Of a stretch of 64,000 bases of DNA, positions 32,525-37,818 are shown piece after piece. Origin of the DNA: an uncultured bacterium (GTDB taxonomy: Bacteria > AUK180). Both the position numbers and the translations under genes were made by a program. Position 1 is the stretch's first letter. The number at the start of each line of letters is the position of its first letter. Location: NCBI GenBank assembly GCA_937863565.1, contig CALMGJ010000009.1, positions 62,001 through 126,000 on the forward strand. Direction: 5' to 3'. A model generated the notes under the pieces. That model saw only the letters and a list, made by a program, of their open reading frames with translations. It had not been told where the DNA came from and made no database searches.

Positions 32525-32531
32525 AGTGCAT

Positions 32532-32559
32532 ATTATACATTTTTAGCGGTTTTTTGCTA
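32532..32559 (-). promoter_or_regulatory. Putative leaderless promoter of the MFS-HD-ABC operon
   Basis: Perfect TATAAT ending 7 nt before the ATG; weak -35 (TAGCAA, 16-nt spacer); no SD. Confidence 0.55.
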
Positions 32560-32878
32560 CTGTTTTTTATAAATGCATGGCCCTTTCCCGCTGACGACGG
32601 CATGCCATTCGCTTTATTAAACCGCCCGCTGGATAAAATAATTCTTCATATAGTGATTTTTTCTAAATAAATGTCTCTTTATGGTATTTGGATATTGTTT
32701 TCTATATTTTTACATGGTTATTCGAAAAACTATAAACAGTGCGGTCATTTTTTATTTCGCAATTTATCTTGCAATGACTGGGAGGAGATGATAGTGGCAA
32801 TTGAAATTTAGATCTTAATTTTTTTGTTTTTACCGCCGCGCTGTGTTCTGTACCGAATGTATTCTGTAATCCGCCATT

Positions 32879-34135
32879 TTAACCGTTCCGCGTCATGATT
32901 GCCGAACCGTTGGGAATTGCATAATAGGAATATCCCGTGGAGTACTTTTCCGCTAGGAGCTTGTCCATTGCAGATTGAGACCAAACGTGTTTGAAATGCA
33001 TTTTCTCCGCCCAATCCAATATTCTTTTTGAATACAGTATGATATTGCATTTATTTAATTGTTTTGCCATCAAATAAGCACTGTGGATACCAAGTTTGAT
33101 CTCTTCTTTTTTTAATGACAATAGTTCTCCAACAGGTTTCGCCAACCAGTTCTTAAAAATATCGTTACCGGCGCCATCAGGAAAATCTCCGATAATAACT
33201 ATTGTTCCGCCTCTTTTCACCGCAGATGCCGCGGTTGCAATGGCTCTCTGTGCATGATAAAGGCTCGCATCCTTTGGGGAACCTCCACAACTTGCAAAAA
33301 CTACGTCAGCAAAGTCTTTTATCGCTACAGTTGTAAGTTCCCTGCAAAGATCCACTCCTTTTTGAAAAGCGGTTTTATGCTCTCCAGAAAATATGCCGTT
33401 TATCTTTCCTTCGGTATCTCGGACGAAATTTATTATATAGTCAAGACCTGCAATATCTGCCGCCTCGACCATTTCCATATGTATCGGGTTCCCCTCGAGA
33501 TTTCCCAGGGCAGCCAGTTCAGAGATTACCATTGAATGATTCGCTTCTATGGTCTTATAGCCAGATATTCCCGGGAGAATTGCTTTCCGACCACCGGAAA
33601 ATCCTGCGAACACATGGGGATTGATCCCGCCCAGCCCTATAAGAATATCCGATTCCCGCACCGTTCTATTCAGATAAAGATCGTTCCCGGAACTAAGTTT
33701 TCCTGTCAATATCAACTCGGCAGAATCATAGGCGTCATGGTGAATAATATTGACCCGCGACAAATTTTCAGCGCCGTATAGTTGTATACATTCACTATCC
33801 CTCTGCCGCGGATGCGATCCGTATGCAACGATCAGCGAAATAACGCAGTCTGAGCGTTCTCGAATAAAAGATATGAGAATATCCAAGATCTCCGGATATT
33901 CGGGATTCTTCCTGGTTTTATCCGCAACGATTATCGATAGTTTCTTAGGCTTTTTCTTAGAAATGAGCTCATCAAGAGAAGGCCTTTCTACGGATTCATT
34001 CAGCAAAGCATTAAGAGTTTTTGAAATGTCTTTTATTGGATTGGAGCGCGGGATATCAAGGATTTTTAGAAGCCGCCCTTTGGGCTTGATGGAAATCTCC
34101 GAATCGGAGTACGCGAATTTCAATTGAGCCCCCAC
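32879..34135 (-). CDS. LarA superfamily nickel-pincer racemase/epimerase (DUF2088)
   Basis: DKTR, G.H, PHVFAGFSGGRKAILPG, ANH, GNPIH.EM, SCGG.PKD..LY. Confidence 0.88.
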   Translation of the reverse strand: MGAQLKFAYSDSEISIKPKGRLLKILDIPRSNPIKDISKTLNALLNESVERPSLDELISKKKPKKLSIIVADKTRKNPEYPEILDILISFIRERSDCVISLIVAYGSHPRQRDSECIQLYGAENLSRVNIIHHDAYDSAELILTGKLSSGNDLYLNRTVRESDILIGLGGINPHVFAGFSGGRKAILPGISGYKTIEANHSMVISELAALGNLEGNPIHMEMVEAADIAGLDYIINFVRDTEGKINGIFSGEHKTAFQKGVDLCRELTTVAIKDFADVVFASCGGSPKDASLYHAQRAIATAASAVKRGGTIVIIGDFPDGAGNDIFKNWLAKPVGELLSLKKEEIKLGIHSAYLMAKQLNKCNIILYSKRILDWAEKMHFKHVWSQSAMDKLLAEKYSTGYSYYAIPNGSAIMTRNG

Positions 34136-35106
34136 CGCTGACGGGCTGAATCAAGTATGCGTTTAAACATCTCCTTATAGGGTATTCCACTCAGCTCGCA
34201 GCACTGAGCAAGAGTCCTGTGCGGATGGAGGGTCGCATCGGCGTTAAACTCGAGGAAGAAATGCTCCTTGTTTTCATTCTGTCTGATATCGAATGTACAG
34301 AAGTCAAGTGGTTTGAACAGATCATATATTCTATTGCAGTCATCCAATATCCCGGCATACAAAGGATCCGTGTGGTCTATATGAATTTTGTCGAAGACCC
34401 CGGCTTTTTTCGCTTCAAAGAAAAGATATTTATCTCCCAGAGGTTTTCCCTTATATACATCCTCCGCAATACAGACGGTTCTCGGTGAACAGTCTCCAAT
34501 CATACCCACTTTAAGTTCTCTTCCCGGAATGAATCTTTCTACTATGAAAGGCATCTTGAAATGCAAAAGCGCTTTTTCGACGGCTTCATTGAGCATGGAG
34601 CCCTGCAATATCACGGAATCTTTTCCTATTCCGACAGAAGAACCTTCGTGAGCGGGTTTTATTATTACAGGGCAATGAGGAAAGCAAGCAGATTTTAAAT
34701 CGGCGGTTTCTTGAATATAAGTCCAGTCCGGAGTTGGTATCGACAGCTTATCAAAAAACGATTTCATAAGATGTTTATTCTGGCTTACCATCTTTGAATA
34801 AGGATCTGCGCCCGTATAAGGGATCCGCATATATTCATAAATACTTGGCGGGGATGAGAGTCTAAACCTTTTTGAAAATCCTACCGATAAATTTAAAATG
34901 ATGTCTATTCCTTCCACAATAGAACTTCCGGCTCTGCAAAGCTTATCCGGGGGACCGAGGATAACAGGCACATGATCGAGATTGAAGAGGGTCTGCAGTA
35001 TTTTATCGATCTCAATATCTTCGCGCCAATGATAGAGCTCATTTATTGAAGAAATCCCCATTTTAAGTGCATCTTCTCTGGTTTCAAGAACTATCCCTAT
35101 CTTCAT
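34120..35106 (-). CDS. D-Ala-D-Ala-ligase-like ATP-grasp enzyme
   Basis: IPYTGADP, K...K, IPTP, IIKPAHEGSSVGI, VERFIPGRE, D.R, FFLEFN. Start MKIGIV is coupled to the vanW stop (TAATG); ORF track gives 35124. Confidence 0.85.
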   Translation of the reverse strand: MKIGIVLETREDALKMGISSINELYHWREDIEIDKILQTLFNLDHVPVILGPPDKLCRAGSSIVEGIDIILNLSVGFSKRFRLSSPPSIYEYMRIPYTGADPYSKMVSQNKHLMKSFFDKLSIPTPDWTYIQETADLKSACFPHCPVIIKPAHEGSSVGIGKDSVILQGSMLNEAVEKALLHFKMPFIVERFIPGRELKVGMIGDCSPRTVCIAEDVYKGKPLGDKYLFFEAKKAGVFDKIHIDHTDPLYAGILDDCNRIYDLFKPLDFCTFDIRQNENKEHFFLEFNADATLHPHRTLAQCCELSGIPYKEMFKRILDSARQRWGLN

Positions 35107-35930
35107 TACCGGATCCTCTTGCATTCCGGGGTGTATCTCTCCCGTTTAAAATATGTCAGTTTTTTCCCTTTGGCATCCTCGGTATATCTTTTTGTTTCAA
35201 CTAGCCATCCATTGATTATTCTGTACGAATTCACGTCAATTTTCCTGTTTATAGGTTCGGGCGGGATTTTTTTAATGATGTGCGAGAGGACAATAATTTT
35301 GCGTTGTGTTTCTCTTTCGGAAGCTATCTTACAAATAACCTTCCGTTCGTCTTCCGACACTTGCATTGATATCGCGATCCTAAAAGGCAGATCATTTTTA
35401 AATTTTAAATCCCTTCTTCCAAATACCACAATGGCATCAAGGCCCAATGCAATAAACCGTTGGTCACCCCAGATATCTATACTGTGATTGTGTTTTTCAA
35501 GAACTTTAAGCCCGGAGTGAAGTGCACAATTGAAGAGGGTGGTGCTGATCTGGCATACGCCTCCGCCAGAGGAATGTGTTAATTCTCCGCCAACAATGAC
35601 AGGGCCCTTAAGATATCCCCTTGCTTCAGACCGCTCTCCAACTACTCTGTTAAATGAAAAGACATCATTTGGTTCAAGTACGATACCGTCAATGCAGCGG
35701 CAGCTTTTCTTCATATTCTTGATCCGGTTTGCATTCACTTCTTTAAGTTCGGGACGCATTCTGATATCCGTTTGAAACATCCCGATAAGGAAAGGATATT
35801 CTGAAAAGGAGGATGTTCTGTTATTCTCCTTGACGAATCGATATCCTTTTGCCGTATTCATCACGGTTTCGGTAAAAAGTCTTATTTCTCTAAAGTGCAG
35901 AGCGGCATCGGGTTTTTCCTTATTTTTCAT
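35106..35930 (-). CDS. vanW: VanW family protein (stand-alone, no membrane anchor)
   Basis: N......IDG..L.P..VFSFN..VG.....GY, GGGVCQISTTLFN, HNHS, GLDA.V.....DLKFKN. 274 aa from ATG 35930; ORF track gives 35996. Confidence 0.85.
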   Translation of the reverse strand: MKNKEKPDAALHFREIRLFTETVMNTAKGYRFVKENNRTSSFSEYPFLIGMFQTDIRMRPELKEVNANRIKNMKKSCRCIDGIVLEPNDVFSFNRVVGERSEARGYLKGPVIVGGELTHSSGGGVCQISTTLFNCALHSGLKVLEKHNHSIDIWGDQRFIALGLDAIVVFGRRDLKFKNDLPFRIAISMQVSEDERKVICKIASERETQRKIIVLSHIIKKIPPEPINRKIDVNSYRIINGWLVETKRYTEDAKGKKLTYFKRERYTPECKRIR

Positions 35931-37119
35931 ATGGAAGATCCGGATATTTGACCCAGTTTCCTTTCCAATTTTTAAATACAATGACAGGAGTGCCATTGTT
36001 CATTTCATATTTGAATTTTGGAGTGCTTTTAAGTTCAAGGGGAATATCCTGTTTTCCATCAATATGGAAAAGACAGTATCTTGGAAAAGCAGGACCCGGA
36101 ATGGTTCTCCGTAAAGGCAAAAGGAGTTCACAGCCTTTTCTTACACTGAGCCCGTAATGTGTCCGCCCCAGAGCATAAGGAGCGTAATGAAAAAGATAGT
36201 AGGGAGATATTCTCCGGGAATAGAGTCCTGTAAAAAGTTTTTCCAAGATTTCACTACTGTCATTAACCCCCTTTAGTAATGGGCATCTGTTCAAAAGCAT
36301 TGGACGGTATCCTTCCGTCTCAAAAAGTTCCAAGACCTCGTCAACTGCCGAGGTCAGTTCTCTGGGATGGCTGAAATGTACTTCGAGGACAGTGAGCCTG
36401 AATTTTTTGAAAATCGAGATCAGCTCTATATCAAATCTATACGGCAGGAAAGTTAAAGCCCTTGTATTAAGGCGGATCGTTTCTATGGAAGTCACGCTTC
36501 GCAGATCCGATAATATCCGATAAAGTTTTTTATTACTGATAATAAGAGGGTCTCCTCCGCTAATAAGAACATCCTTTATCCGTGGATTATTTCTTAAATA
36601 CCGAATCGTGTTTTTCCAGATATCTTCTCCAAGACCAGTTTTGCTTTTTCTGCTGCGGTCCAGAATACGGTAAGTCAGATAACAGTAATTACAATGCCCG
36701 AAACAACTATCTACCACTCTTATAATCGCTCTGTCGGGATATTTATGTTGAATAATCTGCGTCGGGAATTCGGTTCGTTTTTCCCAATTTACGTTTTTTC
36801 CGTTATAATCGGTCATGCCACGCATTTCACTGCTATGTAAATATTTGAATTGATTCCAGATGGGATCTCTCGGTTTCGGATTCCCGTGTTCATCAAATTC
36901 TATCAGCGAAAGAAGATATGGCGTCAATCCGATATTGTATTTTTTCCTGTATTCTTCATATTCTTTTTCTTCTGCTTTGCCTATACCCGGGAAAAATTCA
37001 GTGATTTTCGAAGCATTATCAAACCGGTTCGCAAGTTGCCAATGCCAGTTTTTCCATTTTTTTAAATCGATTTTTGCGATTCCCGGGAGGGTCGCATTTA
37101 TTGCATAATTATTCCTCAC
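35920..37119 (-). CDS. KamA-family radical SAM/PLP 2,3-aminomutase, substrate unknown
   Basis: W.NW.WQL.N, TPY, DPI..Q, HKYPDR, CFGHCNYC, SGGDPL, HPRE, LLKGVND, PYYLF, GK (PLP Lys), NWKG. Confidence 0.88.
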   Translation of the reverse strand: MRNNYAINATLPGIAKIDLKKWKNWHWQLANRFDNASKITEFFPGIGKAEEKEYEEYRKKYNIGLTPYLLSLIEFDEHGNPKPRDPIWNQFKYLHSSEMRGMTDYNGKNVNWEKRTEFPTQIIQHKYPDRAIIRVVDSCFGHCNYCYLTYRILDRSRKSKTGLGEDIWKNTIRYLRNNPRIKDVLISGGDPLIISNKKLYRILSDLRSVTSIETIRLNTRALTFLPYRFDIELISIFKKFRLTVLEVHFSHPRELTSAVDEVLELFETEGYRPMLLNRCPLLKGVNDSSEILEKLFTGLYSRRISPYYLFHYAPYALGRTHYGLSVRKGCELLLPLRRTIPGPAFPRYCLFHIDGKQDIPLELKSTPKFKYEMNNGTPVIVFKNWKGNWVKYPDLPYEK

Positions 37120-37357
37120 TACTAAAAATCACCCTTGTTATTGGACTGTTAGCCTGTAATAAAAGAGCTCTTACCGCCCTTGAAATTTCTTTCATCGGCA
37201 GTAGTAGAACAATTTCCCGGAATGTGTTCTTAAAGATCGCAATTCTTCTCCTTAAGAACAAAAGTACACCTTTCCGGGGTTTTCTTAAGTAATTATTGTT
37301 CCTCATTGGATTATTTCTATTCCTGGTCGATATACCTTTTATCAAAGTCAATCTCAT
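37109..37357 (-). CDS. Small Arg/Lys-rich hypothetical ORF (82 aa)
   Basis: Overlaps the aminomutase start by 11 nt; AGAGG sits immediately upstream; no recognisable motif. Confidence 0.35.
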   Translation of the reverse strand: MRLTLIKGISTRNRNNPMRNNNYLRKPRKGVLLFLRRRIAIFKNTFREIVLLLPMKEISRAVRALLLQANSPITRVIFSSEE

Positions 37358-37425
37358 CCTCTCTGCAAAGTATCTTCTTCCCCTATTTCAGAAAAAAATC
37401 CACTGCATTCAACATAGATTCTCAT
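37354..37425 (-). CDS. Putative 23-aa leader peptide MRIYVECSGFFSEIGEEDTLQRG
   Basis: Its TGA overlaps the next ATG (ATGA). The start lies 7 nt below a TTGAAA-N17-TTAAAT promoter-like element at 37433-37461. Confidence 0.25.
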   Translation of the reverse strand: MRIYVECSGFFSEIGEEDTLQRG

Positions 37426-37772
37426 GTATATTATTTAAGCACTTTTATATTTCTTTTTCAAGCCCCATTATCCAGTAGAAATTCGTGCGGGGTTTTGTAT
37501 TTTGGGAATAATAATTAAATTATTAAATATTATGACCGGCGAGCGGAAAATTAAGATATAAAATTATACGCTGGAATCCGTATGGGCAGATAAATGTAGA
37601 ATTGACGGCAGTATGTTCTGCGGTGCAGGAAGCGGATGATCGTTTATTATTTTTTCCGATGACGGGAACCGAAGTGATCTTTGTTTTTCCAAAAGAGGGC
37701 TTTTCTACAAGTAAAATAGGAGCTCTTTTAACGGAATTCCGCACCAAGACGACTAAAAAGTCGAAACAGGCC

Positions 37773-37801
37773 TTGACTACTAAATAAATTTTTAGTATAA
37801 T
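37773..37801 (+). promoter_or_regulatory. dinB sigma70 promoter with embedded palindromic operator
   Basis: TTGACT-N17-TATAAT; TACTAAA-N6-TTTAGTA at 37778-37797 spans the spacer. Confidence 0.8.
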
Positions 37802-37818
37802 ATATCAAAAGGGCGCAT

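Follow-up and report, generated by a model that had tools for sequence, protein, structure and literature searches.

A KamA-like gene heads a low-GC four-gene operon

This report concerns an open reading frame (ORF) for a KamA-like radical S-adenosylmethionine (radical-SAM) enzyme, and the operon that it heads, in DNA of an uncultured bacterium (GTDB lineage Bacteria; AUK180). The window, that is, the whole stretch of DNA that was analysed, comprises 64,000 nucleotides (nt; assembly GCA_937863565.1, contig CALMGJ010000009.1, positions 62,001 to 126,000), and all coordinates given without a locus name are positions within it. The ORF, at 35920–37119 on the minus strand, encodes a KamA-fold radical-SAM protein in which the scaffold motifs CxxxCxxC, SGGDP, HKYPDR and PYY are kept. 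A preliminary description, made from the letters of the sequence, had read it as an aminomutase that has lost the residues for recognising lysine. What we add is chiefly the operon context, which that description did not contain; the finding as a whole is a KamA scaffold in which the pocket and the gene partners are new and the lysine is re-registered. The genes and spacers at the locus are as follows (aa, amino acids; PLP, pyridoxal 5′-phosphate; GC, fraction of G and C).

35920–37119, minus strand: gene for the KamA-like radical-SAM/PLP enzyme; 399 aa with a GTG start; cluster cysteines Cys139/143/146, SGGDP at residues 187–191, candidate PLP lysine K356
35106–35930, minus strand: stand-alone VanW-domain gene; about 274 aa from the ATG at 35930 (35996 is the start of the longest ORF); overlaps the KamA-like gene at its stop
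34120–35124, minus strand: Ddl-family ATP-grasp ligase gene; 334 aa, the N-terminal domain being divergent; shares 19 nt with the end of the VanW gene
32879–34135, minus strand: gene for a LarA-like 2-hydroxyacid racemase/epimerase; 418 aa; shares 16 nt with the end of the ATP-grasp gene
37120–37818, no strand: AT-rich spacer (GC 0.356) between the operon and a divergent dinB gene; presumed promoter region
32525–32878, no strand: AT-rich spacer (GC 0.342) at the end of the low-GC four-gene block

The four genes follow one another on the minus strand in the order KamA-like, VanW, ATP-grasp ligase, LarA-like, with overlaps of 11–19 nt. Their GC content is 0.417, against a window mean of 0.476 (standard deviation 0.021 over stretches of equal size) and 0.50–0.53 in the flanking genes. 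The block is compositionally foreign and translationally coupled, with the KamA-like gene first, and its low GC together with the AT-rich bounds fits horizontal acquisition. No known RNA family, riboswitch or T-box was found by Rfam in 11.5 kb of the window or in ten loci of the family described below, and a promoter and terminator scan returned counts equal to those of shuffled sequences.

Two sets of candidate components were rejected. The downstream major facilitator superfamily (MFS), HD and ATP-binding cassette (ABC) genes have normal GC and no tblastn match in the family loci. Conserved small ORFs were considered as precursors of ribosomally synthesised and post-translationally modified peptides; the recurrent ones all proved to be antisense shadows of conserved genes.

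The product has a KamA fold and groups apart from curated aminomutases

In a Pfam scan the 399-aa protein matched Radical_SAM and Fer4_12 only; the LAM_C domain (PF12544), which canonical relatives have, was not detected. Its last 44 residues contain no cysteine, and serine stands at the position of C268 of LAM, the lysine 2,3-aminomutase of Clostridium subterminale. We take the cysteines of the LAM_C domain, as well as C268, to be zinc ligands in LAM.

Scores against NCBIfam equivalog models all fell below the cut-offs: 215.5 bits for the glutamate model (TIGR04368; cut-off 650), which was the best of them, 206.3 for lysine (TIGR03820; 525.4), 185.5 for arginine (TIGR04468; 600) and 151.4 for EpmB (TIGR03821; 369.3). 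The KamA subfamily model TIGR00238 gave 173.9 bits and thus did not reach its cut-off of 199.2. On the same model, 24 of 25 control proteins, all canonical, scored 286–403, and the 25th, from a Pseudomonas locus (L001), had no match at E ≤ 1e-60. The controls for the other specificities were P0117, a true member of TIGR04468 (620.4 bits, cut-off 600), and L112, an Eam-like protein at 574.9 bits against the glutamate cut-off of 650, the sole near-Eam sequence among 251 genomes searched.

The fold itself is clear. An AlphaFold2 model built with 47 family sequences reached a predicted local distance difference test score (pLDDT) of 94.1, and its best match among solved structures was LAM (2A5H; Foldseek E 2.3e-30). 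VIA-align superposed the model on chain A of 2A5H with Z 39.4 and a root-mean-square deviation of 2.7 Å over 347 residues, the next entry following at Z 14.6. Sequence identity to LAM is 27–28%, and the ESM Atlas labels the protein simply as ‘KamA family’.

A word-indexed search recovered about 96 clusters of close relatives (36–61% identity, 258–566 bits), which we refer to as the family; the next matches were canonical KamA proteins at 31–33% identity and ≤195 bits, nearly all carrying PF12544. Source labels of family members include Bacillota, WOR-3, Zixibacteria, Bacteroidota, Chitinispirillaceae and one Theionarchaea bin. The family is rare, with members in 2 of 401 genomes (E ≤ 1e-90), and no member was found in eight genomes of the same family or class as the window’s genome. 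When genome contigs were scanned with the full-length family alignment, the matches listed included canonical KamA genes only and no family member; these canonical loci became our control set.

The tree that the preliminary description had proposed was run with 110 rows. In it, 45 family rows and the Pseudomonas protein L001 formed one clade (branch length 1.08; Shimodaira–Hasegawa-like approximate likelihood ratio support, SH-aLRT, 100), apart from TIGR03820-positive LAM/AblA, the TIGR04468-positive arginine aminomutase, the Eam-like protein and E. coli EpmB. The placement on this branch and the scores below every equivalog cut-off support the earlier claim that the enzyme is neither a lysine nor a glutamate mutase. 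The glutamate, arginine (BlsG-type) and EpmB enzymes belong to the same superfamily, but the window protein lies far below their cut-offs, in a clade separate from theirs and with a different residue pair at LAM positions 293 and 330 (below). With respect to EpmB the gene neighbourhood differs too, the neighbours here being the VanW, ATP-grasp and LarA-like genes.

The substrate pocket is rebuilt and the loop lysine is shifted

All four strings quoted in the preliminary description are present in the ORF: CFGHCNYC from residue 139, NRCPLLKG from 277, PYYLFHYAP from 306 and PRYCLFHIDGK from 346. We compared the pocket residues in four alignments, namely phmmer to 2A5H, the family profile to 2A5H (hmmsearch), MAFFT, and a profile–profile comparison by hhalign between the family and 24 canonical proteins, the latter in L087 numbering, which is that of LAM plus two. 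For LAM we assume the following roles: Arg134 binds the substrate carboxylate, Asp293 and Asp330 bind the ε-amine, and Lys337 binds PLP, with the HKYPDR and PYY motifs presumably also taking part in PLP binding.

The two positions for the ε-amine have lost their acidic residues, as had been read by eye: in all four alignments Asp293 corresponds to Ala313 or Pro314 and Asp330 to Phe351. The reading of Arg134 as leucine stood in three alignments, where the equivalent is Leu148; the hmmsearch profile places residue 150 there. Close by lies Arg151, five residues past the third cluster cysteine and invariant in the family (96/96), which pairs with R136, R135 or F137 of LAM depending on the method. 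Of the two arginines of canonical enzymes, one is thus still present in the vicinity. The NQS motif of LAM is indeed NRC in the window protein, and W-R-A/S in most of the family.

These replacements are common to the 96 homologous clusters and hence no accident of one sequence. Leu148 is conserved in 80 of 96 clusters, Ala313 in 85, Pro314 in 95 and Phe351 in 84; W277 (82/96), R278 (89/96), H311 (95/96) and H352 (92/96) are further family features. Across the 24 canonical sequences, the positions of R134, D293 and K337 show no variation, and that of D330 hardly any. The catalytic scaffold is retained throughout, with C139/C143/C146 and S187-G188-G189 in 96/96 clusters and D or E at position 190. 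The residues now standing at the replaced pocket positions include the aromatic W277, F351, Y/F312 and Y/F315 among aromatic and aliphatic side chains. The window protein also has Cys279 and Cys349 where relatives mostly have Ala or Ser and Thr, respectively.

The glycine-rich lysine loop had been described as shortened from GGGGK to DGK, but it is not just a shorter loop: the stretch P346–P360 is as long as P325–P339 of LAM, and it is the lysine that lies two positions earlier. K356, the only conserved lysine of the loop (93/96), pairs with G335 of LAM, and D358 with K337, in both the hhalign and the hmmsearch profile alignments. Accordingly, the spacing from the lysine to the conserved proline is two residues in all canonical sequences examined and four in the family and in L001. 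The earlier statement that cluster motif and PLP lysine are kept holds for the three cysteines and for the presence of a lysine, whose register differs in the profile alignments. Compared with LAM (KamA) and AblA, then, the window protein shares the fold, CxxxCxxC, SGGDP, H(R/K)YPDR, PYY and a conserved lysine in a C-terminal Gly-Lys loop, and differs in R134→Leu, D293→Ala/Pro, D330→Phe, the lysine two residues earlier and the missing PF12544 match.

These departures raise the question of whether the protein might be a KamA-fold radical-SAM enzyme that does not carry out a PLP-dependent 1,2-amino shift at all and catalyses some other radical rearrangement or an epimerisation. The unreached TIGR00238 cut-off, the lysine out of the K337 register and the missing LAM_C domain would fit such chemistry. 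We nonetheless judge it quite unlikely, given that HKYPDR and PYY are kept, that a single lysine sits in the right loop in 93 of 96 clusters, that the fold is superposable over nearly the whole chain, and that the partner enzymes are all enzymes for α-amino or 2-hydroxy acids.

A second possibility is that the enzyme still acts on lysine, ornithine or arginine and holds the cation by cation–π contacts in an aromatic box (W277, F351, Y312, Y315). That the replacing residues are mostly aromatic is in line with this, as are the relatives next to ligase genes that keep D293 and D330 (see below), which show that β-lysine-type products are fed to such ligases. However, the window protein itself has asparagine rather than tryptophan at 277. 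Moreover, the controls of characterised type are acidic or polar at one or both of LAM positions 293/330 (LAM D/D, E. coli EpmB D/E, the arginine aminomutase P0117 D/T), the Eam-like L112 reads Q/T and the window protein A/F, and the family forms a long-branched clade of its own. A basic substrate therefore appears very improbable to us.

The VanW–ligase module recurs with the aminomutase in other loci

A metagenome scan with the C-terminal alignment yielded 17 loci, of which one (L108; a 30-residue match at 1e-4) was dropped. Together with the window and one genome (G021), the remaining 16 metagenome loci make up 18 family loci. VanW and ATP-grasp genes are both present in 15 of the 18, and in two of the three exceptions (L097, L106) the contig is short and stops too early. 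The LarA-like gene occurs in 10 of 18 loci; in two loci that are devoid of it (L092 and L095), a gene for a D-isomer 2-hydroxyacid dehydrogenase directly follows the ligase gene. The four-gene operon thus recurs in unrelated uncultured anaerobes. We found no description of this family or module in the literature searched.

Other genes accompany the module less regularly. Seven loci encode a radical-SAM protein (about 400 aa) whose SPASM domain is at the N-terminus, an unusual order (including L092:10431–11621, L093:268–1509 and L094:13394–14599); no orthologue was found in the window’s genome, where the search gave a generic 27-bit match only. Transporter genes flank the module in several loci: MFS_3 and ABC in the window, EamA in L098, ABC-2 in L100, and in L094 two ABC genes plus a Polysacc_synt/MatE gene (MOP-family, flippase-like) that overlaps the aminomutase start. 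Adjoining the module in L092 (8181–9236, plus strand) and L102 (6470–7435, minus strand) are two homologous genes (44% identity) for proteins of about 330 aa with a PP-loop-like SGGTDS motif, neither of which has a Pfam match at 1e-6.

The partner proteins parallel van-type genes but differ from them

The VanW protein of the window has neither a signal peptide nor a membrane segment and keeps the GGGxCQ, H..D.W and LG.DA motifs. In 13 VanW proteins of the module (about 260–275 aa), these motifs and the Cys/His/Asp candidates are invariant (13/13), and an N-terminal hydrophobic segment is absent from all 13. In work of 2024, VanW domains proved to be LD-transpeptidases of the Cys-His-Asp type that also have carboxypeptidase activity, and the characterised VanW-domain proteins are membrane-anchored and outward-facing (PMC11348318). 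Measured against the proteins covered there, which face outward, a cytoplasmic stand-alone form is unusual.

The ligase aligned with E. coli DdlB over residues 75–332 (DdlB 43–305) with an hhalign probability of 99.4 and E 5e-21. The equivalent of DdlB K215 is kept, the Y216 position is variable and the N-terminal domain could not be aligned. On models for Van ligases the protein scored 24–44 bits against cut-offs of 495–775 (VanA, 27.4 against 775). Longer homologues of the ATP-grasp ligase were not found at E ≤ 1e-15, which is weak evidence for their absence.

The LarA-like protein has retained the equivalents of LarA H108, H174, K184 and H200, which are nickel-pincer cofactor and catalytic residues. 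At the specificity positions of LarA (F175, F176, W358, T359), the window protein reads V-F-H-S and eight of eight full-length module proteins A/V-F-H-S. The source of these positions (PMC11770544) gives H/Q-K at the last two of them for malate racemases and Y-F-H/Q-T for 2-hydroxyglutarate racemases. The A/V-F-H-S pattern of the module proteins matches none of the racemase groups described there. An aminomutase, VanW or ligase context was not found in the main texts on the LarA superfamily, and COG1509, COG2720 and COG1181 are not in two supplements of PMC7583248. The window’s LarA-like gene resembles an orphan LarA.

As a set, the operon recalls the vanB-type genes (VanH, VanB, VanW), which likewise combine a Ddl-family ligase and VanW with an enzyme that supplies a D-2-hydroxy acid. 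The differences are that the supplier is here of the LarA type rather than VanH, that ligase and VanW score far below the cut-offs, that VanW is cytoplasmic and free of other domains, and that an aminomutase is added. This likeness leads to another explanation, in which the operon would remodel peptidoglycan precursors in the cytoplasm by a VanH/VanA/VanW-like set plus aminomutase, with no free small molecule as product. Three of the four families do parallel van-type genes, the activities reported for VanW domains (PMC11348318) are those of LD-transpeptidases and carboxypeptidases, and cell-wall genes lie near the module in some loci (Amidase_3 in L104/L105, the MOP-family flippase-like gene in L094, M23 in L099, MreB in L100). 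Yet the ligase is far below all Ddl and Van cut-offs, no VanX/VanY-type peptidase or VanRS-type regulator occurs among the scanned window genes around the operon, and VanW has no export signal. With one family member carrying the label of an archaeal (Theionarchaea) bin and the family being as rare as stated above, we regard a role in wall-precursor synthesis as unlikely.

A sister clade and canonical gene pairs link aminomutases to ligases

An exhaustive profile search (HMMER, 1.84 billion representatives) showed that the clade extends beyond the core family, with the signature of the L001 type (C..YCQFCFEALRT, PEY..H..GK.TVP) in many representatives. We group these proteins with the family under the label shifted-lysine (PboF-like), a grouping defined in this analysis and not a curated family. 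The window protein has its features: an H-x-x-G-K-x-x-[IV]-P loop, an arginine five residues past the third cysteine, loss of R134, D293 and D330, no LAM_C domain and an ATP-grasp gene downstream.

L001, from P. fluorescens, has the gene order aminomutase, ATP-grasp_3/4, PF10014 dioxygenase, MFS. The same order and Pfam content characterise pboF-G-H-I in the Pbo secondary-metabolite island of Pseudomonas syringae pv. phaseolicola, in which PboH was modelled on isoleucine 4-hydroxylase (PMC8473136). It is on gene order and Pfam content, not on sequence, that we equate L001 with pboF-G-H-I. PboF/L001 and the family have in common the H-x-x-G-K loop, His311/His352, the arginine at +5, the loss of R134, D293 and D330, the lack of LAM_C and a downstream ligase; they differ in overall sequence (32% identity), in a ligase of ATP-grasp_3/4 (L-amino-acid-ligase) type, in the PF10014 and MFS genes and in having neither VanW nor LarA. 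Beside the Pbo-like genes, L001:12718–14435 holds a gene with a Tox-PLDMTX Pfam match and an ImpA_N (type VI secretion) gene.

Four gene fusions inform on the chemistry of this sister clade; they appeared only in the exhaustive HMMER search, the word search having returned canonical fusions only. In P0132 a D-2-hydroxyacid dehydrogenase is fused to a shifted-lysine aminomutase, P0135 combines the aminomutase with an alanine racemase (TIGR00492 222.7 bits, passing the cut-off of 168; VanT-G 220.5, below 460), and in P0136 and P0137 the fusion partner is a HisC-like aminotransferase. Since all four are 43–47% identical to L001 and 33–34% to the window protein, they belong to the PboF-like sister subclade. 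A link between the sister subclade and the core family is provided by the dehydrogenase domain of P0132, which has 37% identity (E 1e-65) to the dehydrogenase encoded next to the aminomutase in the core-family locus L095. The fusions point to free α-amino, 2-oxo and 2-hydroxy acids.

Canonical enzymes are paired with ligases as well. A homologous ATP-grasp gene lies next door in 27 of the 80 canonical KamA loci listed, and four of five long aminomutase homologues are KamA+Dala_Dala_lig_C fusions (P0121, P0123–P0125), which argues that aminomutase-then-ligase is a general design. The paired ligases are homologous to the window’s (23–30% identity) and likewise adjoin or are fused to the aminomutase; their aminomutases, unlike that of the window, keep R134, D293, D330, GGGGK, LAM_C and the GSQTVL/CDP signature. 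In these canonical KamA–ligase loci, tblastn detected no VanW gene. Such canonical KamA genes, with the GSQTVL/CDP signature and both aspartates and with a ligase following or fused, were seen in L004, L010, L011, L017, L026, L079 and 21 more; L017 has two ligases plus a GNAT gene beside the canonical KamA gene. These loci look like an uncharacterised β-lysine-type ligation module spread over many phyla.

The pairing with a ligase bears on whether the amino acid is free when it is rearranged. The substrate might instead be blocked at its carboxyl group, as the N-terminal residue of a dipeptide or depsipeptide made by the ligase, or as an aminoacyl ester or thioester on VanW. The replacement of Arg134 by Leu148 in 80 of 96 family members would agree with this, as would the glutamate at this position in the PboF-like subclade, which would repel a carboxylate, and the fact that the aminomutase is always in an operon with the ligase. 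Set against this are Arg151, which is invariant and within one to three alignment positions of the lost arginines, and the sister-clade fusion partners, whose substrates are free amino, oxo and hydroxy acids. In addition, the canonical KamA+ligase fusions keep Arg134, D293 and D330, so that there the aminomutase acts before ligation. On balance a blocked substrate seems improbable.

A candidate route to β-amino acid conjugates

Taken as a whole, the data are best explained, in our estimate with somewhat better than even probability, by a working 2,3-aminomutase that acts on a non-basic amino acid and supplies a ligase module. The enzyme would shift the amino group of this substrate, probably an amino acid with a neutral or hydrophobic side chain, from C2 to C3; the carbon skeleton of the amino acid may be tied to a pool of 2-hydroxy or 2-oxo acids through the LarA-like protein here and a D-2-hydroxyacid dehydrogenase elsewhere. 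The ATP-grasp ligase would then condense the β-amino acid into a small peptide or depsipeptide, on which VanW could form an acyl-cysteine intermediate before transfer or trimming, and the final product would be exported or built into the envelope.

As to the side chain, we favour a neutral or hydrophobic one. The evidence is circumstantial: the aromatic and aliphatic replacements in the pocket, and, beside the sister-clade aminomutase in clusters of the Pbo type, the PF10014 dioxygenase, a relative of an aliphatic-amino-acid hydroxylase. To this extent the hydrophobic or aromatic substrate suggested in the preliminary description is upheld. Two invariant histidines and R278/R319 mean that an acidic substrate may also be accommodated.

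Several points weigh against the proposed aminomutase–ligase pathway. The substrate is not readable from the sequence. PLP use is something we infer rather than demonstrate, because K356 is off the position of LAM K337 in the profile alignments. The window protein carries Asn277 (codon at about 36289–36291) where 82 of 96 relatives have tryptophan and is one of two members to do so; with this residue and the cysteines at 279 and 349, its specificity may differ from that of the rest of its family. The LarA-like racemase may be idle in the window’s organism, whose genome (95.5% complete) gave no match to LarC and only sub-cut-off scores for LarB (25 bits against 175) and LarE (33.6 against 150), despite the kept cofactor residues. 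The fusion evidence comes from the sister clade and would extend to the window’s family by analogy. L096 is truly devoid of VanW and ligase, so the aminomutase can occur without the module. Finally, near-duplicates (L091/L103, L104/L105) reduce the count of independent loci to about 13–14. In L096 (7578–10414), a carbamoyltransferase gene precedes the aminomutase gene and overlaps it; two integrase genes are found upstream, and a SIR2-like gene follows downstream.

A more specific version of the aminomutase–ligase pathway, which we put forward as a doubtful but attractive conjecture, is that the clade represents a natural 2,3-aminomutase for small or hydrophobic neutral amino acids of the alanine or leucine type, with the lysine channel plugged by Trp/Phe/Tyr and the PLP lysine re-registered, and that together with VanW and the ligase it provides an undescribed route to β-aminoacyl peptides or depsipeptides. 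Alanine-type 2,3-aminomutase activity has reportedly been engineered from LAM for the production of β-alanine, and to our knowledge the gene for the reported ‘leucine 2,3-aminomutase’ has never been identified.

The curated models tested here cover four types of radical-SAM 2,3-aminomutase (lysine, arginine, glutamate and EpmB). A clade with the catalytic scaffold kept, the pocket rebuilt and the lysine shifted is a direct lead to a new β-amino-acid-forming reaction and of interest for biocatalysis, and the recurring swap or fusion with 2-hydroxyacid enzymes narrows the candidate substrates to a short list. The fixed cytoplasmic VanW partner offers a testable second role for a domain that PMC11348318 describes in extracytoplasmic wall cross-linkers.

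At the 5′ end of the aminomutase gene, a strongly basic ORF of 82 aa (37109–37357, minus strand) ends 11 nt inside the gene’s start; it is probably not a gene.

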